From contig CAYOXJ010000001.1 of assembly GCA_964407905.1 (NCBI GenBank), positions 25,752-60,744 of the forward strand: 34,993 bases of DNA, in the 5' to 3' direction. Of this stretch, positions 13,078 through 34,993 are shown in pieces; the stretch's first letter is position 1; each line of letters starts with the position of its first letter. The DNA comes from an uncultured Thermoplasmata archaeon. Its GTDB lineage: Archaea > Thermoplasmatota > Thermoplasmata > UBA10834. The notes under the pieces were generated by a model that was not told where the DNA came from, did not search any database, and was given only the letters and a program-made list of their open reading frames with translations. The translations under genes were made by a program, and so were the position numbers.

Positions 13078-13692
13078 TCAGACATGACCACTAGATAGTT
13101 TCTTCTCAGCCCAGCGCAAGTCCTCAGGATTGTTCAGATTCCGATAGCTTTCCAGCTCGGGGTCTGCTTCTCGGATCTCCTTCTCTTCGACGTATGCGAT
13201 ATTCAGTTCTTGTAGCGCATCCCGCGGTTTCAGCCTTCCTTTGGCAAGAGCGTGCTCGAAAGCGGTGAGGCACACTTCTCTCTTGTACGCGCCGTGGAGG
13301 GTCTCATATTTCCAGCCAATCTTGGGCATGGCTCCATCCCTCCCAATCGCTCTTGAGATGACTAGTCTGCAGAGACGGGCTTTCAAAAAAGGCGTGTCGC
13401 AAGGACTGACCAAGACATATTCCCCAGCAGCGGCCCTGAATGTCCTTGCCAGCCCTTCCAGAGGTCCAATGTTGTCTCTCTGGTCCTCGACGAATATGAA
13501 TTCCTTTCCCAGAATCTCGTCGTACTCCCGGGTTCTCCCTTTGCCAACGGAGACAAGAGTCTCATCCACAATGCCAGACACCGTTCTTGAGACGTGTACG
13601 ATCAGGGGGACCCCGCCGAGCATGGTCAACCCCTTTTCCTGTCCCATTCTGGTGCTCCGGCCTCCCGCTAGTATTACTCCAGAGAGCATCAT
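13078..13692 (-). CDS. mobA: Molybdenum cofactor guanylyltransferase MobA
   Basis: 204 aa. The N-terminus SGVILAGGRSTRMGQEKGL..LGGVPLI is the MobA nucleotide-binding signature. A downstream SPCDTPF motif is also present. Confidence 0.85.
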   Translation of the reverse strand: MMLSGVILAGGRSTRMGQEKGLTMLGGVPLIVHVSRTVSGIVDETLVSVGKGRTREYDEILGKEFIFVEDQRDNIGPLEGLARTFRAAAGEYVLVSPCDTPFLKARLCRLVISRAIGRDGAMPKIGWKYETLHGAYKREVCLTAFEHALAKGRLKPRDALQELNIAYVEEKEIREADPELESYRNLNNPEDLRWAEKKLSSGHV

Positions 13693-13814
13693 TCACTCAG
13701 AACCGAATCCTGGCTAATCAAGATATCTGCAACCGTGATGAAGCGGCATCAAAGCCAGTAAGCCAAAAAGGTTATAACCGGCCAGACTTTTCGCACAGGA
13801 GCCGGTACTGTTCC

Positions 13815-14861
13815 ATGCCCAAGATAACGATGTCTCAAGGCGCTGGTGGCGAGCGAATGCAAGAGTTCATTCGCGAGTTCGTGCTCAAGGAACTCGATCA
13901 CGACTTCGGCGAGATACCGCTGGCGGCGCTTGACGACGCAGCGATAATCGACGGCATCGCTTTCACGACCGACTCGTACACCGTGAAGCCTCTCTTCTTC
14001 CCGGGCGGGGATATCGGTGTTCTGTCAATTGCCGGCACGGTCAACGATTTGTCGGTCATGGGTGCGACGCCTCTTGCTCTCTCATGTGCCATGATAATCC
14101 AGGAGGGCTTTCCAACGGACGACTTGCACAAGATAATGAAGAGCATGAACAACACGGCAAGAAAGGCGGGCGTGAAGGTCGTCACAGGGGATACGAAGGT
14201 CGTGGAAAAAACAGCTGCTGATGGCCTATTCATCAACACGAGCGGAGTGGGAAAGCGTTCTGAGCACCTCGACCACAATATCGAGGTGGTGAGGAGATCT
14301 AGGACATTCAGATGGAAGTGGCCCAACGATTCGGCTGTGGCACCTGGAGATGTGCTCATTGCTTCGGGGCCGATAGGCAACCACGGTGTTGCTCTGCTGT
14401 CTTTCAGGGAGGGCTATGGATTCGATACAGCGGTCAAGAGCGATGCAGCACCAATGAACCACCTCGTCGAGGACGCGCTGAGCGTCGGCGGAATCACCGC
14501 GATGAAGGATCCGACGCGCGGGGGAGTGGCCAACTTGCTGAACGAGTGGGCGGACAAGTCGAAGGTCGGCATGCGTATCAGAGAAGAGGACCTTCCGATC
14601 GATGAGGCGGTGCTCTCGGCCTGCGAGATGCTGGGCATCGACCCATTGGAGATCGGCAACGAGGGCAAAGTCGTCCTCGCAGTCGTCCCGGAAATGGCGG
14701 ATCATGTGCTCAAGACAATAAGGGCCAGGCCAGAGGGAAAGAAGGCGGCAATAATAGGCGAGGCATCAAAGGACTTGCATGGTGTGATGATGGTCACGCA
14801 TACTGGCGGCAAGAGAGTGGTCGAGCCACCCGCCGGCGATCCTGTGCCGCGAATCTGCTGA
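13815..14861 (+). CDS. hypE: [NiFe]-hydrogenase maturation protein HypE
   Basis: The track ORF 13587-14861 overlaps mobA, so I take ATG 13815 (MPKITMSQGAGGERMQEF...), giving 348 aa. It has an AIR-synthase-like fold, motifs such as DDAA..DG.AFTTDSY and GDTKVV, and the diagnostic C-terminal PRIC. Confidence 0.9.
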   Translation: MPKITMSQGAGGERMQEFIREFVLKELDHDFGEIPLAALDDAAIIDGIAFTTDSYTVKPLFFPGGDIGVLSIAGTVNDLSVMGATPLALSCAMIIQEGFPTDDLHKIMKSMNNTARKAGVKVVTGDTKVVEKTAADGLFINTSGVGKRSEHLDHNIEVVRRSRTFRWKWPNDSAVAPGDVLIASGPIGNHGVALLSFREGYGFDTAVKSDAAPMNHLVEDALSVGGITAMKDPTRGGVANLLNEWADKSKVGMRIREEDLPIDEAVLSACEMLGIDPLEIGNEGKVVLAVVPEMADHVLKTIRARPEGKKAAIIGEASKDLHGVMMVTHTGGKRVVEPPAGDPVPRIC

Positions 14862-14871
14862 GGATCGCCAA

Positions 14872-15348
14872 CTAGATGAACTCGGCCTCTATCTTCCTCA
14901 GAATCTTGGGCAGGGCTTTGGAGACCTCAGGCGTGAGATTCTCGCTGACGTTCGTGACGTCCTCTGCCTCTATTGCGAGGAAGACCACCTCCTTTGGCAT
15001 CTGCTCGGGGATGAGCCTCCTGCCAAGCGCAAGCGCAGTTGCCATGTTTATTCCATGAGGAGAGGACCCGTGAATAGCCTTTTCGAAATCCTTCTCATCC
15101 AGCACGTAGAGCTCACCCGGCCTTCCCTGCTTCGTCTGAATAGCATCTATGATAATGACCCTGTCATATCCTCTGACCACGTCGAGGAGTTCCAGGCCAC
15201 TTGCCGCGAGTTCCTCCACGTTGACCCCGGGAATCTCCTTGTCCCTCAGCCTTCTGGCAACATGGATTCCCACGCCGTCGTCAGATAGGATCGGATTGCC
15301 AACTCCAAGCACTAGGGTCTTCACAGATGTCCGTAGATCATTGGCCAT
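14872..15348 (-). CDS. Hydrogenase maturation endopeptidase (HyaD/HybD/FrhD family)
   Basis: 158 aa. The N-terminus LVLGVGNPILSDDGVGIHVA, the later IIIDA, and the His in GSSPHG are typical of Ni-dependent C-terminal processing proteases. It is the last gene of the mvh cluster. Confidence 0.85.
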   Translation of the reverse strand: MANDLRTSVKTLVLGVGNPILSDDGVGIHVARRLRDKEIPGVNVEELAASGLELLDVVRGYDRVIIIDAIQTKQGRPGELYVLDEKDFEKAIHGSSPHGINMATALALGRRLIPEQMPKEVVFLAIEAEDVTNVSENLTPEVSKALPKILRKIEAEFI

Positions 15349-15386
15349 AATAATCCTGACTCAGCGGTGGCAGGAAAAGCATAGTT

Positions 15387-15402
15387 GGGGGCATGCGCCC
15401 CC
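15387..15402 (-). other. GC-rich hairpin (6-bp G/C stem, 4-nt loop) in the 64-nt spacer between mvhA and the protease gene
   Basis: The plus-strand sequence is GGGGGC-ATGC-GCCCCC. The stem is perfectly complementary. Its function is unknown. Confidence 0.4.
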
Positions 15403-15412
15403 GAGCTGTTGT

Positions 15413-16927
15413 TCAGAAGTTTCTCTGGGCAGTGAGGAGCGAGCCGTCCTTCCGCCTCACGTTGACCTCTAGCGCGGGAGCACCGTTCAAAGCGTGCGTG
15501 CCACACGAGTTGCACGGGTCGTAGCACCTGAAGGCCATCTCGACCTTGTTCAGAAGGCCGGGCGAGATTTCGCCGTTCTTGATCAGAGCCTTCGCTGCCT
15601 GTCTCACGCTCGTGTTTGTCGCAGCGTAGTTGTTGGTCGTCGCCACGATCATGTTAATCTTTGTGCACAGTCCGTTCTTGTCCGCTGCGTAGTGGTGAAT
15701 CAGGGTGCCCCTCGGTGCCTCGCATATGCCCACGCCCTCCTTTGGCTCCTTGAAGGGTCCTCTGATGTCGTCGCTGGTGATGCTCCTGTCGCTCGCGAGT
15801 TCGAGCATCCTCTCGGTCGCATATTGGAGCTCGATCACGCGCGCCCAGTGGAACGCGAGCGTGTGATGGACTGGACCCGTGACTCCGAGGTCCTTCATCG
15901 TCTTCTTGAAGATCTCGTACTCAGCCTGCGCCAGCGGGGTCGTGTACCCCGTGCAGACGTTTATCCTGCCCAGCGGACCAACTCTGTATATGCCGCTGGA
16001 GGCGCCGTCCACGAATCCTTTCCAGCCAACCTTCTTCAGGTATGGCATCTTCATGTAGGTCCAGGGCTCAACATGCTCGGCGATGACGTCCAAGTACTCG
16101 CTGGGCTTAAACTTCACGACCTCCTTGCCAGCCTGATCGACAACGCGTATGTCTCCGTCGTAGAAGTTGGTCTTGTTGTTCTTGTCGACCATGCCCATGT
16201 AGTAGGTCTCGAGGTAGTAGGCATCCTTGTTGAGCACGAAGCCCAGATAGTCCTTGTTGCCCAGCACCACGTCGTGGAACAGCTTGATGGTGAACTTGCC
16301 GAACTCGACGCAGGACTTCGCCATGTCCTCCATCTTCGCGCGCTCCTCCTCACTTATTTGCTTCGAGACGCCTCCGGGCAGGCCGAACACTGGGTGCGTT
16401 GCACGGCCGCCGACGATCTCCTGCACCTTCTGGCCGTAGGACCTGTGCTTGATGACCTCGGCACCTATCGGCACGCCCACGGCATCGACCACGCCCAGAA
16501 CGTTCCTCTTGTTCGAGGGCGCCGACGGGCCGAGCACGAAGTCAGGCGCAGCGAGGGCGTAGAAGTGGGCGATGTGGCTGTGGGTGTACTGCCCCATGTA
16601 GAACAGCTCCCTGAGCTTCTTTGCGGTCTCCGTTGGCGTTGCGTCGAACACCGCGTCCAGCGCCTTCGTCGATGCGATGTGATGTGCGGCTGGACAGACA
16701 CCGCAGAGCCTGTTCGTCAGCACGGGCAACTCCATCACGTGTCTGCCTATACAGAACCTCTCGAATCCCCTCAGCTCTGGGATCTGCAGGTACGCATTCT
16801 CGACGTTCCCTGCATCGTCCAGGAATATCTCGATCTTGCCATGTCCCTCTAGCCTCGTGATGGGGTCAATGGTTATCTTCCTCTCCTTCGTCTTCACTGG
16901 TGTGTCGTTGATAATTGGTCCAGCCAT
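15413..16927 (-). CDS. mvhA: [NiFe] hydrogenase large subunit, Mvh/Vhu-like (group 3c by context)
   Basis: 504 aa. It has RLEGHGKIEI and the N-terminal Ni-Fe ligand motif RLCGVCPAAHH. The C-terminal ligand motif DPCNSCGTH is followed by a 26-aa tail (ALNGAPALEV...), as expected for a protease-cleaved extension. Confidence 0.9.
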   Translation of the reverse strand: MAGPIINDTPVKTKERKITIDPITRLEGHGKIEIFLDDAGNVENAYLQIPELRGFERFCIGRHVMELPVLTNRLCGVCPAAHHIASTKALDAVFDATPTETAKKLRELFYMGQYTHSHIAHFYALAAPDFVLGPSAPSNKRNVLGVVDAVGVPIGAEVIKHRSYGQKVQEIVGGRATHPVFGLPGGVSKQISEEERAKMEDMAKSCVEFGKFTIKLFHDVVLGNKDYLGFVLNKDAYYLETYYMGMVDKNNKTNFYDGDIRVVDQAGKEVVKFKPSEYLDVIAEHVEPWTYMKMPYLKKVGWKGFVDGASSGIYRVGPLGRINVCTGYTTPLAQAEYEIFKKTMKDLGVTGPVHHTLAFHWARVIELQYATERMLELASDRSITSDDIRGPFKEPKEGVGICEAPRGTLIHHYAADKNGLCTKINMIVATTNNYAATNTSVRQAAKALIKNGEISPGLLNKVEMAFRCYDPCNSCGTHALNGAPALEVNVRRKDGSLLTAQRNF

Positions 16928-16931
16928 GTGA

Positions 16932-17948
16932 TCACCCCTTCCTTTTCTTCTTCTCGGTCACAGCCCTCTTCAGCGGGGACTTGGGTAGTGTGAAAGCGTA
17001 GAAGGTCCCAAGCGGGTCTTTGACCTGCATCATCATCTCCATGATCTGTTCCTCACTTAGCTTTGACTCCGAATCCGTGATGTTGAGGAGCGACGACAGT
17101 GCGCTCAGCATGCTAGCGCCCTGGTCGGTCACCGCCTTCGTCGGGCCCATGCAGCCTCTGCACGGCATATTCGCGTTCGGGCACATCGCGCCGCAGCCAG
17201 CCCGCGTCGCCGGGCCGATGCATATTATGCCCTGATCGAGCAAGCACTTCTTCGGGTCGGGCTTGATCTCGTAGGCCTGGTAGATCTTCTCAATCCTCCT
17301 GCCTTTCTCGACCCGCTCCCTCTTGCACTCGTCGCAGAGGGTCTTGTCCGAAGCGATGACCGTCCCCTTCGGCGGAAGAGGCGCTCCCTTCGTCACGTGC
17401 TGTGCCACCGCATCCACGGCCATGGCGATCAGGTTGACCGTGGGCGGGCAACCTGGCATGAAGTAATCGACGTCGACCACCTCGTCGAGCGTCTTGACTG
17501 TGTCGTAGAACTCGGGCAGTTCCAGCTCCCCCTCGGGAACCTTCAGATGCGACTGCGGGGTCACGAAACCTGGATTGTCGGTCGACACGGTATTCTTGTA
17601 GACCGTCTCGAAGACTTCCTTTCTGTTCGTCACGTTCGCTAGCCCGGGCGTCCCGCCGTAGCACGCGCACGAGCCGAAGGCAATCATGACAGCAGACTTC
17701 TCGCGCAGAATCTTGGCCACGTGCTCGTTTTCGGAGTTGCGAATCGCGCCATTGTAGAAGCTCACGGTTATGGACTTGTCCGGCATTGCCTCGATTTCCT
17801 TCAGCTTGCCGTCGAACCCGATCGGCCAGAACACGACCTCTGCGATCGCGTGGACGTCCAGGATCCTCGCATCGATGTCCAAGAGCGCGACGTCGCATCC
17901 TCCGCACCCCGCGCCCCAGTACTGTGCGATCTTGATCTTGTCTGCCAT
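16932..17948 (-). CDS. mvhG: [NiFe] hydrogenase small (Fe-S) subunit, MvhG-like
   Basis: 338 aa. It has the proximal-cluster motif YWGAGCGGCDVALLD, then GSCACYGG and MPGCPP. C-terminal Cys clusters are also present (CDECKRE, CIGPATRAGCGAMCPNANMPCRGC). Confidence 0.85.
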   Translation of the reverse strand: MADKIKIAQYWGAGCGGCDVALLDIDARILDVHAIAEVVFWPIGFDGKLKEIEAMPDKSITVSFYNGAIRNSENEHVAKILREKSAVMIAFGSCACYGGTPGLANVTNRKEVFETVYKNTVSTDNPGFVTPQSHLKVPEGELELPEFYDTVKTLDEVVDVDYFMPGCPPTVNLIAMAVDAVAQHVTKGAPLPPKGTVIASDKTLCDECKRERVEKGRRIEKIYQAYEIKPDPKKCLLDQGIICIGPATRAGCGAMCPNANMPCRGCMGPTKAVTDQGASMLSALSSLLNITDSESKLSEEQIMEMMMQVKDPLGTFYAFTLPKSPLKRAVTEKKKRKG

Positions 17949-17949
17949 C

Positions 17950-18342
17950 TCAGTTCACCTCTACCTTCTCAGGCTGTGCCCTGCTTGGCGCGGCCCTGTA
18001 CTGCGGCGACTGACCCTTCATGCCGACCTGGTCAACCAGCCTCCATCTCTTGAGGGCGATTATGTGCTTCACGATCTCAGGCTTCGGTATGCCTGTGATG
18101 TCGTGCAGCTCGTGAACGGTCCTCGGGCCTTCCTCCATTTCCTGCAGCAAGAGGTTTCTCTCCAGCTCCACGCCTGCGGCCTTCTGCACTATGAAGCTGT
18201 ATCTCGCGTCAGTGATGGCCTCTCCGAAGACGTTTCCCTGTGTCGTCAGCTGGCCCTTCTTTCCCAGAAGCCATCTGACCCTCTCTCCCTCGACTGTTCT
18301 CAGTGCCGCGCGTATCTTGGCCTCCCTGATGGACATCCTCAT
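17950..18342 (-). CDS. Free-standing homologue of the winged-helix-like C-terminal extension that is fused to MvhD in the two upstream modules; function unknown
   Basis: 130 aa, ATGA-coupled to mvhD-d. TQGNVFGEAI and ERNLLLQEMEEGPRTVHELHDITGIPKPEIVKHIIALKRWRLV align by eye with EEGNVYGDKL...ERSLILLLTKNNNMSVKDLSKKMNVPTDRVLEHIVVLRQKNLI in ORF 21838-22602. Confidence 0.6.
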   Translation of the reverse strand: MRMSIREAKIRAALRTVEGERVRWLLGKKGQLTTQGNVFGEAITDARYSFIVQKAAGVELERNLLLQEMEEGPRTVHELHDITGIPKPEIVKHIIALKRWRLVDQVGMKGQSPQYRAAPSRAQPEKVEVN

Positions 18343-18803
18343 TCACCACCTACCATGGGGGACGGTCCAAGTTCCTTAATCGTGTTGGTGAAGGAGATGA
18401 TGGTCTTCTGGAACTTCTCGCCCTCGCCTGCTGATACCCATTCCAGGCGCAGCCTGTCAGGGTCGAATCCGAACTGCTGTATGAGCATCTTCAGCAGCGC
18501 CATCCTCCTGCGGGTCCTGTAGTTGCCGCCTATGTAGTGGCAGTCCGCGGGATGGCAGCCTGCAACGAGGATTCCATCGGCCCCCCTGTTGAACGCCCTC
18601 AGGACGAACTCGGGGTCCACTCTTGCGGAGCACATTACCCTGATCACCCTGAAGTAGGGGGGCATCTGCAGCCTGCTGACCCCAGCAAGGTCGGCGCCTG
18701 CGTACGAGCACCAGTTGCAACAGAACACGAGAATCTTGGGCTCGAACTGCCCGCCTGTCTCCTCGCCCTGGTGCGCGGAAGTGTGCGTCGCCTCGCTGCT
18801 CAT
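18339..18803 (-). CDS. mvhD: MvhD-type [2Fe-2S] iron-sulfur protein (copy d, stand-alone domain)
   Basis: The track ORF extends to 19037 inside hdrA, so I take ATG 18803 (MSSEATHT...), which overlaps the hdrA-d stop (ATGA), giving 154 aa. It has FCCNWCSYAGADLAG, VMCSARVDP and GCHPADCHY, the MvhD/FlpD signature. Confidence 0.85.
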   Translation of the reverse strand: MSSEATHTSAHQGEETGGQFEPKILVFCCNWCSYAGADLAGVSRLQMPPYFRVIRVMCSARVDPEFVLRAFNRGADGILVAGCHPADCHYIGGNYRTRRRMALLKMLIQQFGFDPDRLRLEWVSAGEGEKFQKTIISFTNTIKELGPSPMVGGE

Positions 18804-26429: not shown

Positions 26430-26702
26430 CTACCTCCCTATTGTGCCTGACATGAGCCCACGCACGCAGAGCATGAAATTGCACTCGTCGGTCAGTCTTC
26501 GTTCGCAAGTGTGACAGCGCAACGCGATGAGGAGGTTCCTCAGTATCAGACTCTTTGTCTCAGCATCTACATTGGGCAGCGAGGTCTCTGCCATCTCCAA
26601 GCTCTCATGCTGGACTCTCCCCCAACGCGGCAGAGTTGAGAAGTGTTTCTTGAACAGCCAAGCGGTCCTTATTGCGTTCACCTCGTCCTTCTCGTTCTTC
26701 AC
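26430..26702 (-). CDS. Hypothetical 90-aa protein with a C-terminal CxxC...C-x5-C motif (coding status uncertain)
   Basis: The ORF exactly fills the space between hdrA-b(C) and mvhD-b. Its GTG start forms a GTGA overlap with the hdrA-b(C) stop, and it ends 4 nt before the mvhD-b ATG. It contains RCHTCERRLTDECNFMLC. I recognise no homologue. Confidence 0.4.
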   Translation of the reverse strand: MKNEKDEVNAIRTAWLFKKHFSTLPRWGRVQHESLEMAETSLPNVDAETKSLILRNLLIALRCHTCERRLTDECNFMLCVRGLMSGTIGR

Positions 26703-28576
26703 AGGACCACCTCTTTGATCCCCGCCAAACCTTCGACGATGAGTTGTTCATCTGTATAGTGCAGCATTGTGATGGCCTTCTCAGGACACCCTGCTCCGCA
26801 CGCACCACAGCCCTTGCATGCAGCCTTGATCACCTTTGCCTTCATACCTTTGGGACCGCGTTCCACCGTGATTGCCGAGTACGGGCAAAGCGTTGCACAG
26901 ATTCCGCACCCTACACACGAGTCTGTGTCCACATCTGAGGCAATTGCCTCAGCGAGAACGTAGCCTTTGCTGAGAGGTATCGCAGCCCTTGACGCCGCTG
27001 CGGCCGCCTGCGTCACACATTCCGTGATATCGGATGGACCTCTGCAAGTCCCGCAGACATAGATGCCGTCCGTCGCGAAGTCAACTGGTCTCAGCTTCAC
27101 ATGCGCCTCCAGGAAGAACCCTTCCTGGCCCAGGGGTACCTTGAGCTTCTGCGACAGCTCGCCGGCATCTGGCTGGGCGACCAATGGTGTCGACAGGATG
27201 ACCATGTCGACAGCCATCGTCCTCTCGAGCTTCAGGGTCTCGTGGAAGTAGCCCACTGTCAGCTGGTTTCCTTCCATGAAGACCTTGGGCGCGTTTTCCG
27301 GGATGTATCTGACGAACTTGATTCTCTTCTCCCTCGCCTTGTTGTAGGTCAGCTCGTGCTCGACGCCGTAGGCCATGACGTCCCTGTTGAACACGGTGAT
27401 TTCTATTTTCTCAGAAGGCCCGAGCTTGACCTCCTCAGCCCCAGCTTCCTCACCTCTCTCGCGTCCGCGCCTTCTGCGCCTGCGCTCAAGGATCTCCTCG
27501 GGGGCCTTCTGCTCGACAGGTATCTTCTCGACGACCGTGCCCTCCTTCTCCATCAGGCCGAGCATGTTCTCGTAGTTGTCCACTATGTTCATCGCGTTTT
27601 TGACAGCGACGTTGCAGCAGATTCTTGAGCAGTAGCTCTTGACCTGGCCCCTCGAGCCGACGCATTGAATGAATGCGACGTTCTTGAGCTTCGGGAGCGT
27701 CTTCTTCTTGCAGAGTATCTCGAACTCGGTCAGCGTGACGACGTTGGGGTATTGGTTGTATCCGTACAGGCCCTCAGGAACGAACTCGAGGGCACCCGTT
27801 GCGACTATGATTGTTCCGACCTTCGCCTTCGTGTCCTCTGCGCCCTTGGTTCCTATGACGATGTCGTAATTGCCGATGAACCCCTGAACCGCCTTGAGCG
27901 TGGAGTTCATGTAGAGCTTGATGTTCTTGTGCGCCCCGACCTCCTCGATGAGCGGCTTGATGGTCTCGGTTGCGCTCTTCTCTGTGACGTAGAGGTTGTT
28001 CAGATTCCTCACGAAGCCGCCAAGCTCGTTCTCTTTCTCGATCAGATGAACCGGAAATCCCATGTCTGCCAGAGACAACGCGGCAGTCATGCCAGATACC
28101 CCACCACCTATCACCAGTGCTGCGGCGGTCACATCGACTTTCTCCTCTTCCTGCGGCTCGAGCAGCCTCGCCCTGGCGACGCCCATCCTGATCAGATCCC
28201 TGGCCTTCTTGGTCGCCTTGTCCTTCTCCTTCATGTGCACCCAAGAGCACTGCTCGCGGATGTTGACGAATGTGAACAGATACTTGTTCAGGCCTGCGCT
28301 CTCACAGGTCGCCTGGAATAGCGGCGCGTGGGTTCTTGGAGTGCAGCTGGCCACTATCACCCTGTTCAGGTTGTGCTTCTTGATCCCTTCCCTTATGTCG
28401 TTCAGACCATCCTCGGCGCAAGTGTAAAGATTGTCAGTAGCGTAGACAACGTCAGGGAGCGTCTTCGCGTACTCCGCGACCGACGGAACATCGACAAATC
28501 CACCGATGTTCGAACCACAATGGCATACGAACACGCCGATTCTCGGCCCTTGCTTGCTCTCAGTCTTCTCAGCCAT
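26699..28576 (-). CDS. hdrA: HdrA-like flavoprotein, copy b C-module as a separate gene (625 aa)
   Basis: It starts MAEKTESKQGPRIGVFVCHCGSNIGG, the HdrA N-domain. It continues with ASCTPRTH, VIGGGVSGM, CVGSRGQVKSYCSRICC and a C-terminal CVGCGICATLCP/CKGCGACGAGCP. GGAGGGG lies about 10 nt upstream of the ATG. Confidence 0.9.
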   Translation of the reverse strand: MAEKTESKQGPRIGVFVCHCGSNIGGFVDVPSVAEYAKTLPDVVYATDNLYTCAEDGLNDIREGIKKHNLNRVIVASCTPRTHAPLFQATCESAGLNKYLFTFVNIREQCSWVHMKEKDKATKKARDLIRMGVARARLLEPQEEEKVDVTAAALVIGGGVSGMTAALSLADMGFPVHLIEKENELGGFVRNLNNLYVTEKSATETIKPLIEEVGAHKNIKLYMNSTLKAVQGFIGNYDIVIGTKGAEDTKAKVGTIIVATGALEFVPEGLYGYNQYPNVVTLTEFEILCKKKTLPKLKNVAFIQCVGSRGQVKSYCSRICCNVAVKNAMNIVDNYENMLGLMEKEGTVVEKIPVEQKAPEEILERRRRRRGRERGEEAGAEEVKLGPSEKIEITVFNRDVMAYGVEHELTYNKAREKRIKFVRYIPENAPKVFMEGNQLTVGYFHETLKLERTMAVDMVILSTPLVAQPDAGELSQKLKVPLGQEGFFLEAHVKLRPVDFATDGIYVCGTCRGPSDITECVTQAAAAASRAAIPLSKGYVLAEAIASDVDTDSCVGCGICATLCPYSAITVERGPKGMKAKVIKAACKGCGACGAGCPEKAITMLHYTDEQLIVEGLAGIKEVVL

Positions 28577-28582
28577 CTGAAA

Positions 28583-29893
28583 TCACGCCCCTCCCGCCTG
28601 GGCAGTGGCCTGTGCCATGACCTCAACCGCCTTTGCGGCAGCGCTCGAGCCCTGGGCGACGCTTTCTGGTATGTCCGCTGGTCCTGCGCAGTAGCCGGCC
28701 AAGTACATGCCGGGGACGACGGTCCTGCCGAAGTCAAGTATCCTGTCGGTTGATTCCAGGAATCCGAATTCGTCGGTCTTCAGTCCCAGGATCTTGGCAA
28801 GCTCCAATGTCTCCTTTCTCGGGACGAGAGTGGTCGCGAGGACTACCATGTCGAACTCCTCGGACTGTTGCCTCCCGCCCACGTCGAACACAACAATCGG
28901 GTTATGGGTTTCGGGGTTCTCCTGAACGGTAGCGTCTGAGTTGATGTATCTCACACCGTAGTCGCGCTTGGCCCTTTCGATGTACTCGTAGAATCCCTTG
29001 GCGCACGCTCGCATGTCCTTGTAGAAGATGGTCGACTCCATGTCGTCGTGGTGCTCGCGTGCCAACATTGACTCCTTGGTGGAGTGCATGCAGCACACCG
29101 AACAGCAGTACGGATGTCCAACCTGCGGGTTTCTCGAGCCCACGCACTGGATGAACGCCATCTTCATGGGTCTCTTCTTGTCTGATCTGCGCTCGATGTG
29201 TCCATGGGTCGGGCCCGCGGCATTGATCATCCGCTCGTATTCCATCGCCGTGAAGACGTTCGGGTACTTGCCGTACCCGTACTCCGTCGACGAGGAGGGG
29301 TCCCAGACGTCATAGCCAGTTGCGACTATTATCGCGCCGACCTCGATCTCCAGCATCTGGTCCTTCATCTCGTAGTCGATCGCCTCTCTCTTGCAGGCCT
29401 TCTTGCAGTTCCCGCACTTGCCCTTGGTGAACATGATGCAGTTCTCTTTGTCGATCGTCATGACTCTGGGCACTGCCTGCATGAAGGGCATGTATATCGC
29501 CTTCCTGTTGGCGAGCCCCATCTCGAACTCGTTCGGGACCTTGCTCGGGCACTTCTCGAGGCATTCTCCGCAGCCAGTGCATTTCGTCTCGTCCACGAAC
29601 CTGGCCTTCTTAAGCACCTTGACTCTGAATCCGCCAGCCTTCCCCTCGACTCCGACCGCCTCCGCGTATGTGATGACGTTTGTGTTTGGGTGGCTGAAGC
29701 AGTCCGCCATCTTCGGTGCCAGAATGCATATCGAACAGTCGTTCGTCGGGAACGTCTTGTCCAGCTGTGCCATTCGTCCGCCGATGCTGGGCGTCTTCTC
29801 GATTAAGTGGACTATTATTCCCTTGTCAGCGAGGTCAAGGGCCGCCTGTATCCCAGCGACTCCTCCCCCGATCACCATCACAGACCTCTCCAT
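28583..29893 (-). CDS. hdrA: HdrA-like flavoprotein, copy b N-module as a separate gene (436 aa)
   Basis: VIGGGVAGIQAALDLADKG, DKTFPTNDCSICILAPKM, an inserted ferredoxin-like region (CTGCGECLEKCP, then the divergent CIMFTKGKCGNCKKAC) and CVGSRNPQVGHPYCCSVCC. It ends at the position that is the inter-module linker in the fused copies. AAGGAGG lies upstream of the ATG. Confidence 0.9.
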   Translation of the reverse strand: MERSVMVIGGGVAGIQAALDLADKGIIVHLIEKTPSIGGRMAQLDKTFPTNDCSICILAPKMADCFSHPNTNVITYAEAVGVEGKAGGFRVKVLKKARFVDETKCTGCGECLEKCPSKVPNEFEMGLANRKAIYMPFMQAVPRVMTIDKENCIMFTKGKCGNCKKACKREAIDYEMKDQMLEIEVGAIIVATGYDVWDPSSSTEYGYGKYPNVFTAMEYERMINAAGPTHGHIERRSDKKRPMKMAFIQCVGSRNPQVGHPYCCSVCCMHSTKESMLAREHHDDMESTIFYKDMRACAKGFYEYIERAKRDYGVRYINSDATVQENPETHNPIVVFDVGGRQQSEEFDMVVLATTLVPRKETLELAKILGLKTDEFGFLESTDRILDFGRTVVPGMYLAGYCAGPADIPESVAQGSSAAAKAVEVMAQATAQAGGA

Positions 29894-30014: not shown

Positions 30015-30392
30015 TCACTTCGCGAGTAGGCTCTGCACCTCCTTTCCCTTCTCGATTTCCGTGACCTTCACTTTGAACGGCGCCTTCTTCTTCTGCACCT
30101 CTCTTGCGAACCTCTGGCAGTTCGGATAGGTACATGGGGAGCACTTCTTGTCCTTGCAGGAGAGCTCGATCAGGACCAAACGCTCTCTCGTGTCCTGAGG
30201 CTTCGTCATCGGCTTCTTGATCTCGAACGTCTTCGTCATTCGGGTCTCGAAAGGCACCTTCTTGGGGACCGTTCTGACAAATCTCTGGCAGTTAGGATAG
30301 GTGCACGGGGAGCACTTCCGGTCTTTGCACGAGAGCTCGACCAGGAGATACCTATCCACTTCTCCCTCCGTTTTCTGTGCTTGCGGGTTCAT
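30015..30392 (-). CDS. Small basic protein made of two tandem ~57-aa repeats, each with a C-x4-C-x2-C-x4-C motif; function unknown
   Basis: 125 aa. Repeat 1 is LLVELSCKDRKCSPCTYPNCQRFVRTVPKKVPFE. Repeat 2 is LVLIELSCKDKKCSPCTYPNCQRFAREVQKKKAPFK. GGAG lies 8 nt upstream of the ATG. It starts 18 nt downstream of the mvhD-hdrCB stop. Confidence 0.65.
   Translation of the reverse strand: MNPQAQKTEGEVDRYLLVELSCKDRKCSPCTYPNCQRFVRTVPKKVPFETRMTKTFEIKKPMTKPQDTRERLVLIELSCKDKKCSPCTYPNCQRFAREVQKKKAPFKVKVTEIEKGKEVQSLLAK
30112..30175 (-). repeat. Intragenic direct repeat, unit 2 (encodes the second Cys4 motif)
   Basis: This 64-nt block matches 30283-30346 at about 56 of 64 positions in my hand alignment. 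The offset is 171 nt, which is 57 codons. Confidence 0.8.
30283..30346 (-). repeat. Intragenic direct repeat, unit 1 (encodes the first Cys4 motif)
   Basis: See 30112-30175. CTCTGGCAGTTAGGATAGGTGCACGGGGAGCACTTCCGGTCTTTGCACGAGAGCTCGACCAGGA aligns with CTCTGGCAGTTCGGATAGGTACATGGGGAGCACTTCTTGTCCTTGCAGGAGAGCTCGATCAGGA. Confidence 0.8.
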
Positions 30393-30410: not shown

Positions 30411-32012
30411 TCATTCGAGCGCTTCTGCGACGACCACGCTCAGGTCCTTGATCGGGATCTCGATCTGCTCCTTTGGCGTCTGCGTCTTGTTGTTCACGAT
30501 GGCACAGCTCAGGTGTATCAGGCACTTGTAGCAGCCTGTCACGAGACATCCCGCGCCGGACTTCTTGGCCTCTTTGAGCCTCTCGACCTGGAGCTTCCGG
30601 GATATCTCATCGCAGGTGGCCCACGCGCTGACGCCGCAGCACACAGCCTTGTCCCTCGTGTTCTCCATCTCCACTAGCTGCGTGCCCTCGACAGCCTTCA
30701 GAGCATTCCTGGGCGCGTCGAAGATGCCAAGGTGTCTGCCCAGCCTGCATGAATCCTGAAAGGTGAATTTCCCGGTGCCCTTCTTGAACCTCAGCTTGCC
30801 CTCTTGCACGAGATCGTCGATCAGTTCTGAAATATGCATCATCTCGAAGTCGAAGTCCCCCATGAAGTCCTGGTAGTCCAAGTTGAAAGTGCGCATGCAC
30901 TCAGGGCACGAGAACACGACCTTCTTCGCGCCCGAAGCCTTTATGAGCTCGACATTCTTCTTCATCAGTTTCTGAAGGCTGGCCTCGTCGCCTATCCAGT
31001 TGAGGTCATGTCCGCAGCATACTTCGTCGTTGCTGACGACCGGGACAATGCCCGCCCTGTTCATAATCTTTACTGCAGCCTGGGGTATGCCAGCGAGTTT
31101 GAGATCTTCCCTGTCCTTGAATATTGAATCGTAATAGGATACGCAGCCCGTGAAGTAGAAGACATCGCCCTTGTCGGATATCTTGAGCTCGGGCGTCATC
31201 CAGCCGATGCGGTTCTGCTTCAGTTTGCTGTTCGCCTGGATGCGCATGACCGCTTGGATGATACCTCCCTGAGAACAAACGGCCTCATTCCCCAACGCAG
31301 AGGCCTCGGCTCTCATGCCCCTGATGAAGCCCGAGTAATCGACCTTGTAGGGACACATCGCGTTGCACTGTTCACAGGTCACGCAGGTCCAAACATCGCG
31401 ATTCGTCGCGACATTGTCAACGATGCCCTCCATGGCCTTGAGCACGATTGTCCTCGGGGCGAAGTTCGGGTTGTATTTCGCGACTGGGCACACGGTAGTG
31501 CACTTGCCGCACTCGACACAGTCGAACGCACCAGTGTCTTCAATCAGCTGGTCAATCTTCTTCTTCAGGTTGGCGGGATTGCTCTTTCTCGACTGCGCCC
31601 TTGGGAGCGGATTCGGTCCGATGACCCGGATCTGCTCAGTGAACTCCCTCATTGTGGCAGCGAACTTCTGCCCCTCCGAGGCGGATATCCATTCGAGCCT
31701 CATGCGGTTCCTGCCGAGGCCTAGTTTGTCCAAGACTTCCATCGTAGAGGCCATTCGCTTCTCGGCCTCGACATTCCCCTTGACGTAGTGACAGTCCCCT
31801 ATGTGACAGCCGGCGACAAGAACGCCATCCGCTCCAAGTTCGAGCGCCTTCAGGACGAAGTACGGTTCCACGCGGCCCGAGCACATGACTCTGATGATCC
31901 TCGCATTGGCAGGATACTGCATCCTGGAGACGCCCGCGAGGTCTGCACCTGCGTATGAGCACCAGTTGCAGCAGAAGGCGACTATGTTCGGCTCGAACTT
32001 CGCGTCCGTCAT
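30411..32012 (-). CDS. Triple fusion MvhD-HdrC-HdrB (MvhD [2Fe-2S] domain + 2x[4Fe-4S] ferredoxin + two CCG domains)
   Basis: 533 aa. The MvhD part has FCCNWCSYAGADLAG, VMCSGRVEP and GCHIGDCHY. The HdrC-like part has CVECGKCTTVCP and CVTCEQCNAMCP. The HdrB-like CCG motifs are GCVSYYD...EVCCGHD...SCPECM and DSCRLGRH...AVCCGVS...GCYKCL. The ATG overlaps the hdrA-a stop (ATGA). Confidence 0.85.
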   Translation of the reverse strand: MTDAKFEPNIVAFCCNWCSYAGADLAGVSRMQYPANARIIRVMCSGRVEPYFVLKALELGADGVLVAGCHIGDCHYVKGNVEAEKRMASTMEVLDKLGLGRNRMRLEWISASEGQKFAATMREFTEQIRVIGPNPLPRAQSRKSNPANLKKKIDQLIEDTGAFDCVECGKCTTVCPVAKYNPNFAPRTIVLKAMEGIVDNVATNRDVWTCVTCEQCNAMCPYKVDYSGFIRGMRAEASALGNEAVCSQGGIIQAVMRIQANSKLKQNRIGWMTPELKISDKGDVFYFTGCVSYYDSIFKDREDLKLAGIPQAAVKIMNRAGIVPVVSNDEVCCGHDLNWIGDEASLQKLMKKNVELIKASGAKKVVFSCPECMRTFNLDYQDFMGDFDFEMMHISELIDDLVQEGKLRFKKGTGKFTFQDSCRLGRHLGIFDAPRNALKAVEGTQLVEMENTRDKAVCCGVSAWATCDEISRKLQVERLKEAKKSGAGCLVTGCYKCLIHLSCAIVNNKTQTPKEQIEIPIKDLSVVVAEALE

Positions 32013-34993
32013 GCCTTGGCTTCCTCCTGCTCAAGCTCCTTCCTGAGCGCAGCTTCTATCATCGTGAGTATCTGTTCTGTCTTGAAGTGCTTCGGCCTTA
32101 TCGCGCGGGAGCAGCAAGCGACTGCACATGATCCGCAGCCCTTGCAGAGAGCCTCGTTGATCTTCGACTTGAACACCCCTGGAGCGACCTCCTCGACCCG
32201 TGGCGCTCCGTACTCGCAGATCTCCTCACACCTGCCGCAGGCGATGCACTTCTCCTCGTCGACGACGCTCACGACGCCCTCGGCCTCGATGAAGGATTTC
32301 GACAGAACCGTGTTCACCCTTGCGGCTGCCGCAAGTGCCTGCGAGATGCTCTCGTCGATAAGCCTCGGCGAGTGCGCCAGTCCGCAGAGGAATATGCCAT
32401 CCGTGGCGAAGTCAATCGGCCTTAGCTTCATGTGCGCCTCGAGGAAGAACCCCTCCTTCGTCAGAGGCACCTTCAGCAACTTGGCCAGCTCACTGTTGTC
32501 TGGGTTTGGGTGCACCGCAGCGTTCAGGACCAGGTAGTCTGTCTTGATCTTGACGGGCTGTTCGATGAACTGTTCCTCGACTTCAACCATCACATGGTTG
32601 TGGTCCGCAGTCACCTTTGGCGGGGACGCGGGATCATATCTCAGGAATGTCACTCCAAGCCTCGCGGCCTCGTTGTAGTGTTCCTCTGCAAACCCATAGG
32701 TCCTGATGTCTCTGTAAAGCACGAACACGTTGGTGTTCGGATGCTCCGTCTTGATCTTGACTGCGTTGGCCATCGCTGTAGAGCAGCAGATTCGGGAGCA
32801 GCTCGGGTGCTCCTCGTTCCTGGAGCCAACACACTGTATGAACACGACGTTGTTGGCCTCGAACTTACCATCGTGCAAGAGCATTCCGAGGTCTGTCTGC
32901 TTGATGACCTTCGGGTGCTTTCCGTGCAAGTATTCGGTCGGGCTGTACTCGATCGCGCCTGTGGCCACAACAATGGCACCGTGCTTGATTTTCTCGCCGC
33001 TCTTGAGTGTCGTCTCGAAGTTGCCGATGTAGCCCTTGAGCTCCGCAACCTGGTCAGAAAGATGGATTTTGACATTCTTGTGATCTTCGAGGTCCTTCTT
33101 CAGTCTCTTGAGAGTGTCCTGCGGATCAACGCCAGCAAGGGTATGGTAGATGTTCTTGAGATGTCCACCAAGATCTCCGTCCTTGTCGACCAAATGCACT
33201 TCATAGCCAGCCTTTGCGATCTCCAGAGCGGCTGACATGCCGCTCAGCCCACCTCCGATCACAAGCGCGGACGGTGTCACAGGTATCTTTGGCTGAGGCA
33301 GGGGCTCGAGCATCGCGGCCTTCGCCACGGCCATGCGCACGAGGTCCTTCGACTTCTCTGTCGCCCTCTCGGGCTCCAGCCTATGCACCCACGAGCATTG
33401 ATCTCTGATGTTGGCCATCTCGAAGAGGTACTTGTTCAGGCCAGCCTCCCTTACTGTGTTCTGGAACAGGGGCTCGTGGGTCCTAGGAGTGCAGCTCGCG
33501 ACCACGACCCTGTTGAGGTCGTGCTTCTCGATCATCTCCTTGATCTTCTTCTGAGTGTCCTGTGAGCACGTGTACAGATTCCTCTCAGTGTACACCACGC
33601 GGGGAAGCTTTGAGGCGTACTCGACGACCTCTGGGACGTTCACAACTGCACCTATGTTTATGCCGCAGTGGCAGACGAACACGCCTATCCTCGGCTCCTT
33701 CTTGGAGACGTCCTTCTCCTCTGGATACTCCTTCTTCGTGACGAGCTTCCCGCGCTCCTCCGAGAGAAGAGCAGCGACCTTTCCGGCCGCTCCGCTGGCC
33801 TGCGCCACCGAGTCCGGGATATCCTTCGGGCCAGAGAATGCCCCGCAAACGAAAATCCCTGGCACCGAAGAATCCACGGGCGTCAGATCGTCCGTCTCGC
33901 AGAAACCAAACTTGTTGAGCTTGATTCCGAGGGTCCTGGCCATCGCCTCGGCGCTCGCAGGTGGCCTCGCTCCCGCAGAGAGGATGACCATGTCGAAGGT
34001 CTCCTCTAGGATTTCTGGACCCGAGTGATAGATGAGAACGAGCTCGTTGGTCTTGGGGTCCTCTTGGACCTTCGGGACCCTATTGTTCCTGCGAATGGTG
34101 ACGCCGTACTCGTTCTCTGCCCTGTTAAGGTACTCCTCGAACTCCTTTCCGAAGGCACGCGTGTCCATGAAGAATATGGTGGCCTTCAGACCAGGGACGT
34201 GCTCCTGGGCTATGACTGCCTGCTTCAGTGCAGCCATGCAGCAGTATGACGAGCAGTATGTGTTCGGCGTCTGAGCGTCCCTGGAACCGACGCACTGGAC
34301 GAAGGCGATCTTCCTTGGCACGTCGCCATCCGATGGCCTTATCACATGTCCTTCAGTCGGTCCAGAAGCACTCAACATCCGTTCGAACTCGATGTTTGTG
34401 AGAACGTTCGGGAACACGCCATGGCCGTACTCGACCTTCTTGGCAGCGTCGTAAACCTCGTATCCCGGGCTTATTATAATCGCGCCGACCTCGATGACCT
34501 CTTCCTTGTCAGGCTCCATGCTGTACTGGATTGCCTTGGCCTCGCAGAACTTCTCACAGACTCCGCAGCCGATGCAAAGGCCACGGTCTATCGTGTAGAT
34601 CAAAGGCACTGCCTGGGGGAAGGGCACATAGATCGCCTTGCTCGGAGCCATGTCCCTGTCAAATACGTTCGTTCCTTCGATGGGACAGTGCTCTGCGCAC
34701 ACTCCGCAGCCCGTGCACTTGTCCTCGAGGATGTACCTCGAGCGCCTTGAGAGCGTGACCTTGAAGTTGCCTGCCTCGCCCTCCACCTTCTTGAGTTCGG
34801 CATGGGTCAACATCGTGATGTTCTCGTGCCTGCCGGTCGCAACGAGCTTGGGCGAGAGAATGCACATGGAGCAGTCGTTGGTGGGGAAGGTCTTGTCGAG
34901 CTGGGCCATCGTCCCTCCGATGCTCGCTCCGGCCTCGAGGATGTAGACCTTGAACCCGGAGTCCGCGAGGTCCAGCGCAGCTTGCATTCCCGC
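32009..34993 (-). CDS. hdrA: Double-module HdrA-like flavoprotein, copy a (N-terminus truncated by the window edge)
   Basis: The frame is open to the window end (..AGMQAALDLADSG lies inside the Rossmann motif). It has DKTFPTNDCSMC, CTGCGVCAEHCP/CIGCGVCEKFC, RIGVFVCHCGINIGA, VIGGGLSGM, CVGSRNEEHPSCSRICC and CIACGRCEEIC/CKGCGSCAVACC. Confidence 0.9.
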   Translation of the reverse strand, partial: AGMQAALDLADSGFKVYILEAGASIGGTMAQLDKTFPTNDCSMCILSPKLVATGRHENITMLTHAELKKVEGEAGNFKVTLSRRSRYILEDKCTGCGVCAEHCPIEGTNVFDRDMAPSKAIYVPFPQAVPLIYTIDRGLCIGCGVCEKFCEAKAIQYSMEPDKEEVIEVGAIIISPGYEVYDAAKKVEYGHGVFPNVLTNIEFERMLSASGPTEGHVIRPSDGDVPRKIAFVQCVGSRDAQTPNTYCSSYCCMAALKQAVIAQEHVPGLKATIFFMDTRAFGKEFEEYLNRAENEYGVTIRRNNRVPKVQEDPKTNELVLIYHSGPEILEETFDMVILSAGARPPASAEAMARTLGIKLNKFGFCETDDLTPVDSSVPGIFVCGAFSGPKDIPDSVAQASGAAGKVAALLSEERGKLVTKKEYPEEKDVSKKEPRIGVFVCHCGINIGAVVNVPEVVEYASKLPRVVYTERNLYTCSQDTQKKIKEMIEKHDLNRVVVASCTPRTHEPLFQNTVREAGLNKYLFEMANIRDQCSWVHRLEPERATEKSKDLVRMAVAKAAMLEPLPQPKIPVTPSALVIGGGLSGMSAALEIAKAGYEVHLVDKDGDLGGHLKNIYHTLAGVDPQDTLKRLKKDLEDHKNVKIHLSDQVAELKGYIGNFETTLKSGEKIKHGAIVVATGAIEYSPTEYLHGKHPKVIKQTDLGMLLHDGKFEANNVVFIQCVGSRNEEHPSCSRICCSTAMANAVKIKTEHPNTNVFVLYRDIRTYGFAEEHYNEAARLGVTFLRYDPASPPKVTADHNHVMVEVEEQFIEQPVKIKTDYLVLNAAVHPNPDNSELAKLLKVPLTKEGFFLEAHMKLRPIDFATDGIFLCGLAHSPRLIDESISQALAAAARVNTVLSKSFIEAEGVVSVVDEEKCIACGRCEEICEYGAPRVEEVAPGVFKSKINEALCKGCGSCAVACCSRAIRPKHFKTEQILTMIEAALRKELEQEEAKA

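Follow-up and report, generated by a model that had tools for sequence, protein, structure and literature searches.

In the genome of an uncultured Thermoplasmata archaeon of the UBA10834 lineage, an MvhD [2Fe-2S] domain, an HdrC-like ferredoxin and a pair of CCG domains are encoded as one polypeptide of 533 amino acids (aa). The gene, here called mvhD-hdrD, lies on the minus strand of the window, that is, of the whole stretch of 34,993 nucleotides that was analysed (contig CAYOXJ010000001.1, positions 25,752 to 60,744; Table 1). This MvhD-HdrD fusion is a genuine and conserved repackaging of a known cofactor set, the one found in HdrABC with MvhD, in HdrA2B2C2 and in BamDEF. With moderate confidence, we read the product as a soluble HdrD-type thiol/disulfide unit tethered to MvhD, which would be the partner of the HdrA encoded upstream, work in the canonical manner and descend from a single fusion event within Thermoplasmata.

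All three units that the initial annotation had placed in this polypeptide were recovered by Pfam, by the cysteine map and by Foldseek, and profile matches set the boundaries of MvhD (aa 10–132), of a 4Fe-4S dicluster (Fer4) domain (aa 164–225) and of two CCG domains. The MvhD/FlpD domain as a whole lies at aa 5–138. Its profile match is complete, covering positions 1–123 of the 123 positions of the FlpD/MvhD profile PF02662 (E 2e-54, 183.1 bits against a cut-off of 22.3). The domain is about 58% identical to the MvhD chain 5odc_D (E 2e-51), and its Foldseek TM(target) against MvhD chains is 0.84–0.89 (0.84 for 5odc_D). It thus combines the [2Fe-2S] cysteine set with similarity to structurally characterised MvhD, even though it is not encoded beside mvhG and mvhA but between hdrA_a and a small gene, cys125. 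The ferredoxin part carries the motifs C165xxC168xxC171xxxC175P and C210xxC213xxC216xxxC220P, and the HdrC chains 8rvu_c and 5odc_C match it at E 1e-10 to 1e-13; with two motifs and this similarity it counts as HdrC-like, and the NCBIfam HdrC models match below their equivalog cut-offs. The peptides CVECGKCTTVCP and CVTCEQCNAMCP are both located in the fusion protein. Pfam finds CCG twice (E 3e-21; best stretch in the second domain aa 417–501), with the spacing C290-x41-C332C333-x35-C369xxC372 in the first and C422-x35-C458C459-x34-C494xxC497 in the second. The consensus of HdrB CCG motifs is CX31-39CCX35-36CXXC; the protein has the two expected motifs, the first spacer lying two residues and the last spacer one residue outside these ranges.

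An AlphaFold2 monomer model computed from 59 homologues has a mean predicted local distance difference test (pLDDT) of 83.4 and a predicted template modelling score (pTM) of 0.88, and Foldseek searches with it recover EtfD/HdrB-type CCG domains, MvhD and HdrC. The segment at aa 136–163 measures 26–31 residues across homologues; around the linker, mean pLDDT per block of 10 residues is 87 (aa 131–140) and 70 (aa 141–150). With respect to HdrA-based bifurcation, the fusion is co-encoded with an HdrA flavoprotein and, as initially annotated, translationally coupled to it, the stop codon of the upstream hdrA and the start codon of the fusion sharing an ATGA overlap (...GCATGACG...).

In the alignment of 59 homologues, the cluster cysteines of the ferredoxin and CCG motifs are invariant save C372, which is kept in 58. 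Cysteines 15, 18, 44, 69 and 74 of the MvhD domain are invariant as well, and position 14 is Cys in 30, Thr in 27 and Ala in two sequences. E371 is likewise invariant, and the residues of the second CCG domain are conserved across 49 family members. All ten CCG cysteines are thus kept across the homologue alignment, in agreement with the claim that both motifs are intact; degenerate CCG motifs were considered and rejected on the conservation of these cysteines.

The assignment of the CCG part to HdrB held only in so far as two complete CCG motifs are present. HdrB chains in PDB match the fusion at no better than E 1e-3 to 3e-3, against 5e-26 (sequence) and 5e-41 (profile) for mycobacterial EtfD (9ojn), which is the best match of solved structure (aa 206–505; 358 aligned columns in Foldseek). 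No HdrB model is among the best 25 of 27 NCBIfam matches; no equivalog scores above its cut-off, and the top matches among those listed are TfrB, LdhH, GlpC and DsrK. The local motifs of the fusion (CCGH, CPEC, CCGVSAW and CYKC) differ from those of the canonical HdrB proteins of four of the compared loci (CCP, CNGC, CCGAGGG and CPFC; L001, L002, L033 and L035). By sequence the protein falls outside the HdrB family, and on these E-values and motifs canonical HdrB identity was rejected for an HdrD-like one. The signature CCGH / CxE(C/G) / CxKCxxH is common to the fusion and to homologues from anaerobic methanotrophic archaea (ANME-2), Methanoperedens and Asgard archaea (30–35% identity), the CCGH-type signature is also kept in bacterial homologues, and several homologues of the fusion are named “heterodisulfide reductase subunit D” by the Joint Genome Institute (JGI). 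As in HdrD, an HdrC-like and an HdrB-like domain are present in one chain. Judged from its sequence, the C-terminal part is an HdrD-type HdrC+HdrB unit, itself a known arrangement. No HdrE membrane cytochrome b was found among the annotated open reading frames (ORFs) of the window, a set to which 13078–13692 and 13587–14861 do not belong.

Complex formation, the electron path and catalysis are proposed here by analogy with HdrABC-MvhAGD and BamDEF. The protein would constitute a soluble HdrD-type thiol/disulfide oxidoreductase unit with two cubane [4Fe-4S] and two non-cubane CCG [4Fe-4S] sites, an MvhD [2Fe-2S] adaptor being attached covalently to its N-terminus, and would pair, as a subunit, with the HdrA whose gene is directly upstream. 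HdrA and the fusion together carry the cofactor-binding domains of HdrABC with MvhD, or of Methanosarcina HdrA2(-MvhD)B2C2, split otherwise among polypeptides. The MvhD domain would dock on the mobile C-terminal ferredoxin and N-terminal region of HdrA and relay mid-potential electrons to flavin adenine dinucleotide (FAD), the bifurcating cofactor. The HdrC-like cubanes would accept the high-potential electron from the cluster in the thioredoxin-reductase domain of HdrA, and electrons would then reach the two non-cubane clusters, the putative site of disulfide reduction. We infer that MvhD and HdrC both sit close to the FAD-binding domain of HdrA, and a short tether between them is therefore plausible.

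The known systems share most of this inventory but distribute it differently. Like HdrABC-MvhAGD (PDB 5ODC), the fusion comprises a closely similar MvhD, an HdrC-like dicluster and two five-cysteine CCG motifs, and it is encoded with hdrA and in the same operon as mvhGA. In contrast to that complex, MvhD, HdrC and HdrB form one chain, the CCG part is remote from HdrB (E around 1e-3) with other local motifs, the partner HdrA is of the tandem type (type II), and the host lineage is reported to be without MCR. HdrA2B2C2 of Methanosarcina acetivorans likewise has the four-domain inventory of HdrA, MvhD, HdrC and HdrB without a dedicated hydrogenase, which matches the two-gene modules of hdrA and fusion in L004-type loci; its MvhD, however, sits at the C-terminus of HdrA2, and HdrB2 and HdrC2 are separate (PMC5296606). 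Fusions of HdrA with MvhD are well known. In BamDEF of class II benzoyl-CoA reductase (BCRII), likewise, BamE is a tandem HdrA, BamF serves as MvhD-like adaptor and BamD is the HdrD-like subunit. According to its authors, the wiring mirrors that of HdrABC, with BamF on the C-terminal ferredoxin-like domain and BamD on the thioredoxin-reductase-domain cluster (bioRxiv 10.64898/2026.04.10.717634). Unlike in the fusion, BamD and BamF are separate proteins, and BamD has a degraded distal cluster, a Cys-to-Ser loss, a His ligand and a blocked substrate site and donates to ETF, whereas the fusion keeps both complete CCG motifs. HdrC and HdrB are also united in one chain in the HdrD of HdrDE and in soluble HdrD-like proteins of ANME and Asgard HdrA clusters and of Desulfobacterium (PMC9012536, PMC2702500); compared with the HdrD of HdrDE, the fusion has an extra N-terminal MvhD and no identified HdrE cytochrome b partner. 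Mycobacterial EtfD (9OJN; PMC13083937) differs in being membrane-anchored and non-catalytic, with a linear [3Fe-4S] cluster, and in having C-T at the first CC dyad and the His ligand of C-P-H-C where the fusion has CC and C-P-E-C.

Several observations weigh against the proposed working. EtfD, the solved protein most closely related to the CCG part, transfers electrons and is no disulfide reductase. Since relatives of the organism are reported to lack MCR, CoM-S-S-CoB may be absent from it. In addition, the pTM of the model together with the short and variable linker suggests a fixed packing of MvhD on the HdrD part, maybe unlike the two canonical docking sites, which might restrict the MvhD mobility known from characterised complexes and could bring the MvhD cluster close to the HdrC-like cubanes.

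The first two of these points bear on what the CCG part does. EtfD and BamD are non-catalytic because one CCG cysteine is lost in them and cluster coordination is completed by a His (PMC13083937; bioRxiv 10.64898/2026.04.10.717634). In the fusion, C332C333 aligns with C538-T539 of EtfD, and C369-P-E371-C372 aligns with C581-P-H583-C584, so that neither hallmark is found; a non-catalytic identity of the EtfD/BamD kind was rejected on the absence of these diagnostic substitutions, EtfD being the best PDB match notwithstanding. With both CC dyads kept and Glu371 in place of the His ligand, the site therefore looks Hdr-like, open and potentially catalytic. The HdrD-like part might nevertheless be an electron-transfer terminus and no disulfide reductase, handing the high-potential electron to a protein partner, possibly cys125. 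Beyond the sequence and fold match to EtfD, the reported non-methanogenic state of related lineages speaks for such a role, as do BamD, an HdrD-like protein beside a tandem HdrA that binds ETF and not heterodisulfide (bioRxiv 10.64898/2026.04.10.717634), and the retention of cys125 directly downstream in eight loci. We consider it unlikely, given the ten retained CCG cysteines, the invariant Glu371 and the absence of both the cysteine loss and the coordinating His; moreover, the window holds no etf genes, and cys125 is present neither in the two-gene modules nor in the bacterial loci.

The packing of the model bears on the electron path. The initial annotation had taken the joining of MvhD to HdrCB to imply a different wiring; we found nothing that requires one, and BamDEF, the closest analogue with a solved structure, is wired canonically. 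If MvhD were packed rigidly on the HdrC-like domain, its [2Fe-2S] cluster could deliver electrons directly to the cubanes, bypassing or gating the bifurcating FAD, and so link the ferredoxin arm of HdrA, or a donor module, to the disulfide site. The model is consistent with this, its pTM and its junction pLDDT of 70–88 being estimated to exceed those of a random placement of a 135-aa against a 390-aa domain, as are the shortness of the linker (about 14 variable residues) and the existence of two-gene modules of hdrA and fusion in which MvhD has no obvious external donor because no hydrogenase is encoded there. In the nearest relatives, however, MvhD and HdrD are encoded apart, or MvhD is fused to HdrA, so that any special contact would be older than the fusion instead of resulting from it; since BamDEF also retains the canonical wiring, we judge a direct route quite improbable. 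Even less credence is given to a reading in which a rigid MvhD-HdrCB route, or a fixed substitute for the swinging MvhD gate, goes together with four modules in a hydrogenase-linked bifurcation cascade and, in a non-methanogenic archaeon, a disulfide other than that of CoM and CoB.

An artefactual origin, in which a frameshift, a mis-assembly or read-through had united separate mvhD and hdrD genes, has practically no probability, because two JGI metagenome contigs of independent origin (samples 3300031877 and 3300010324), both of them shorter than the window and not reaching past its end, encode exactly the same 533-aa protein and at least 120 full-length homologues (56–100% identity) have the same Pfam architecture, with the fused frame uninterrupted in 14 loci, whereas the artefact could point only to the separate genes of related genomes and to a frame break within the HdrD part of one metagenome-assembled genome (MAG; L011), which is probably a sequencing error. 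No frameshift or stop divides the ORF, and the fusion stands. Homology also reaches further: in a library-wide HMMER scan, some 20 sequences, each representing a 50%-identity cluster, matched both parts over their full length, down to 32% identity.

The nearest loci belong to uncultured Thermoplasmata MAGs (81% identity for L003, 76% for L001 and L002 and 74% for L011, isolate UBA10834). According to published MAG analyses, in which the fusion is not commented on, UBA10834 (Candidatus Gimiplasmatales) and the orders near it are sisters of Methanomassiliicoccales that lack MCR and carry “HdrA-D, MvhAGD”. An hdrA gene lies directly upstream of the fused or unfused mvhD/hdrD in every locus examined. 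It is of the tandem type in L001–L003, L011, L016, L018 and L065 and about 590 aa long in L004–L010, L013, L015 and L017, and in Candidatus Alkanophaga and Desulfobacteraceae an hdrA-like gene of 1136–1142 aa directly precedes the fused gene. A second Thermoplasmata context, without a nearby hydrogenase, is a two-gene module of hdrA (593 aa) and fusion (542 aa). Further fused forms come from Candidatus Alkanophaga liquidiphilum (WP_456487555.1), from Desulfobacteraceae and Deltaproteobacteria MAGs (a cluster of 96 members) and from unclassified bacteria.

Separate mvhD (138–168 aa) and hdrD (380–445 aa) genes, adjacent or overlapping and in the same order hdrA-mvhD-hdrD, are found in Thermoplasmata or Methanomassiliicoccales MAGs (L014, L016, L021 and L065) and in bacteria (L012, L019, L020 and L063). 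MAG SpSt-1159 has a fused copy (L006) as well as an unfused pair (L016). In a Glassbacteria MAG, mvhD forms the C-terminus of hdrA in an ORF of 1430 aa that is followed by a separate hdrD (L022, 6113–10405). Lying between hdrA and hdrD in gene order, mvhD can fuse to either neighbour. Because mvhD and hdrD are separate, adjacent and in the same order in sister lineages and in bacteria, the fusion can be understood as a joining of neighbouring genes. When the HdrD part is placed in a neighbour-joining tree, those fused forms that were sampled as loci make up one clade and the unfused Thermoplasmata pairs its sister group, which points to a single fusion of neighbouring mvhD and hdrD genes in a Thermoplasmata lineage; the fusion would accordingly have arisen once, from the two adjacent genes of an hdrA-mvhD-hdrD module.

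Two of the bacterial contexts show further features. In the Desulfobacteraceae-type loci L084 and L085 (1582–12024), the fused gene comes after an HdrL-like gene of 1136 aa that has a Fer4_20 N-terminus of the GltD type, and on its flanks it has 2-oxoacid:ferredoxin oxidoreductase genes and a further gene uniting HdrA fragments and MvhD. In a Cytophagia MAG (L012), mvhD and hdrD are in the same frame with a TAA between them, and an in-frame TGA (10193–10195) within mvhD (VLVAT*HFEDCHY) probably encodes selenocysteine because it falls exactly at the position of Cys69.

The architecture is not rare: with at least 120 homologues and about 20 cluster representatives, it is present in both archaea and bacteria. 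Database names of these homologues are automatic (“hydrogenase iron-sulfur subunit”, “heterodisulfide reductase subunit D”). An explicit MvhD-HdrD, MvhD-HdrCB or MvhD-HdrBC fusion was not found in the searchable literature, nor was one in the supplements of an archaeal fusion survey or in the Methanoperedens BLZ2, Methanomassiliicoccales and Desulfobacterium genome papers; these sources cover only HdrA-MvhD fusions, tandem HdrA and the adjacency of hdrA or hdrL with mvhD. Electron bifurcation by HdrA complexes has a central place in the energy metabolism of anaerobes, and multi-HdrA clusters with unassigned partners and substrates are common in uncultured archaea and bacteria. In this setting the fusion acts as a natural tether: the distance from the MvhD C-terminus to the HdrC-like N-terminus must fit the linker of about 14 residues in the complex, a constraint that can be compared with existing Hdr and BCRII structures and that bears on the proposed gating movement of MvhD. 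The compact two-gene module of HdrA and MvhD-HdrD would also be a convenient minimal system for heterologous expression. In other respects the gene is ordinary, one of many in a protein family with automatic annotation, and its worth lies mainly in this constraint and in its use as an expression target.

In the initial annotation, moreover, the four HdrA modules had the fusion as their sole catalytic unit for disulfide reduction. Inside the window this stands, as no other CCG protein was found there. The window, however, ends about 20 codons into hdrA_a, and just beyond the corresponding point four syntenic relatives carry hdrCB. Directly upstream of the hdrA_a orthologue, L002 (1207–6976) encodes hypD, an hdrA of 697 aa, an HdrC-like ferredoxin of 194 aa, a double-CCG HdrB of 305 aa and an mvhD of 138 aa, and the same hdrC and hdrB occupy that position in L001, L016 and L018. 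With this canonical hdrA-hdrC-hdrB-mvhD set, the super-operon of these relatives extends past the point where the window ends, and the apparent uniqueness of the fusion is probably a window-edge effect. In L003, the closest relative, tblastn found no hdrC or hdrB within 7 kb upstream.

Table 1. Features of the mvhD-hdrD fusion gene and of the surrounding Hdr/Mvh array, in window coordinates.
Feature	Coordinates	Strand	Remarks
mvhD-hdrD fusion gene	30411..32012	-	complete ORF, ATG start, 533 aa; Pfam FlpD + Fer4 + 2x CCG
MvhD [2Fe-2S] domain, aa 1-136, Cys14/15/18/44/69/74	31605..32012	-	PF02662
Linker, aa 137-150, sequence variable	31563..31604	-	alignment A1
HdrC-like ferredoxin domain, aa 151-250, two CX2CX2CX3CP motifs	31263..31562	-	Pfam Fer4_8/Fer4_17
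CCG domain 1, aa 284-380: C290, C332C333 (CCGH), C369-P-E-C372	30873..31163	-	Pfam CCG
CCG domain 2, aa 415-503: C422, C458C459, C494-Y-K-C497, H500, C503	30504..30770	-	Pfam CCG
hdrA_a, tandem (type II) HdrA, stop overlaps fusion start	32009..34987	-	~20 N-terminal residues cut by window end
cys125, small basic protein, two CX4CSPCTYPNC repeats	30015..30392	-	18 nt downstream of fusion; 125 aa
Split tandem HdrA: hdrA_N 436 aa (28583-29893) + hdrA_C 625 aa (26699-28576)	26699..29893	-	
mvhD + C-terminal winged helix-turn-helix (wHTH) extension, 262 aa	25637..26425	-	Pfam FlpD + HTH_20/HTH_5; NCBIfam ArsR-like HTH
hdrA_c, tandem HdrA, 1013 aa	22603..25644	-	
mvhD + C-terminal extension, 254 aa	21838..22602	-	48% identical to 262-aa copy
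hdrA_d, tandem HdrA, 1013 aa	18800..21841	-	
Plain mvhD	18339..18803	-	FlpD at aa 102-224 of listed 232-aa ORF
mvhG (16932-17948), mvhA (15413-16927), maturation protease hycI (14872-15348)	14872..17948	-	Pfam Oxidored_q6, NiFeSe_Hases, HycI

The fusion gene is part of a minus-strand array in the order hdrA_a, mvhD-hdrD, cys125, hdrA_N, hdrA_C, mvhD-wHTH, hdrA_c, mvhD-ext, hdrA_d, mvhD, mvhG, mvhA and hycI. The four HdrA modules initially annotated were all confirmed; the window has as many MvhD domains, each hdrA being followed by an mvhD-containing gene. What is attached to MvhD differs: the HdrD unit in the fusion, a wHTH tail in two copies and nothing in the plain copy before mvhGA. Because the four HdrA paralogues are only 44–58% identical to each other, they represent old duplicates. 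Full-length orthologues of hdrA_a measure 1008–1015 aa in L002 and L003. The true start of the plain mvhD is likely Met79 of the listed ORF, which would overlap the hdrA_d stop. The best NCBIfam matches of mvhG and mvhA are VhuG and VhuA, both below curated cut-offs. The array is syntenic in L001, L002, L003, L011, L014, L016, L018 and L065, and compared with these loci the additional unit of mvhD-wHTH and hdrA_c is found in the window only.

The cys125 gene stands directly after hdrD or mvhD-hdrD in L001, L002, L003, L011, L014, L016, L081 and L082. Its product matches PF04060 (“FeS”) with 22.2 bits, just below the cut-off of 23, and could act as a small carrier of Fe-S clusters or as partner to the HdrD-like unit. 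At their C-termini, both long MvhD proteins (262 and 254 aa) are extended by about 125 aa bearing a winged-HTH signature of the ArsR-like type. By domain content only, they resemble BamF as described in print, in which the wHTH serves to dock a partner module (bioRxiv 10.64898/2026.04.10.717634). A PDB search for BamF as a comparison for these long genes returned ordinary MvhD chains only. Docking, and not regulation through DNA binding, is the probable role of the HTH in the long MvhD proteins.

Regarding the split HdrA, hdrA_C has an Arg/Glu-rich insert (…EEILERRRRRRGRERGEEAGAEE…), and L016 has a single ORF of about 1000 aa at this position. The 270-bp gap between hdrA_C and mvhD-wHTH is filled by a minus-strand ORF of 90 aa without Pfam match (26430–26702), which may be a non-coding remnant of the insertion of the extra unit because no counterpart was seen in L001–L003. 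Elsewhere in the window, 3159–4589 on the minus strand encodes an MttB-family methyltransferase of 476 aa, apparently without an in-frame amber codon because its ORF is uninterrupted, and 7838–11686 on the plus strand, upstream of the Hdr/Mvh array, encodes a receiver-PAS-GAF-histidine kinase of 1282 aa.

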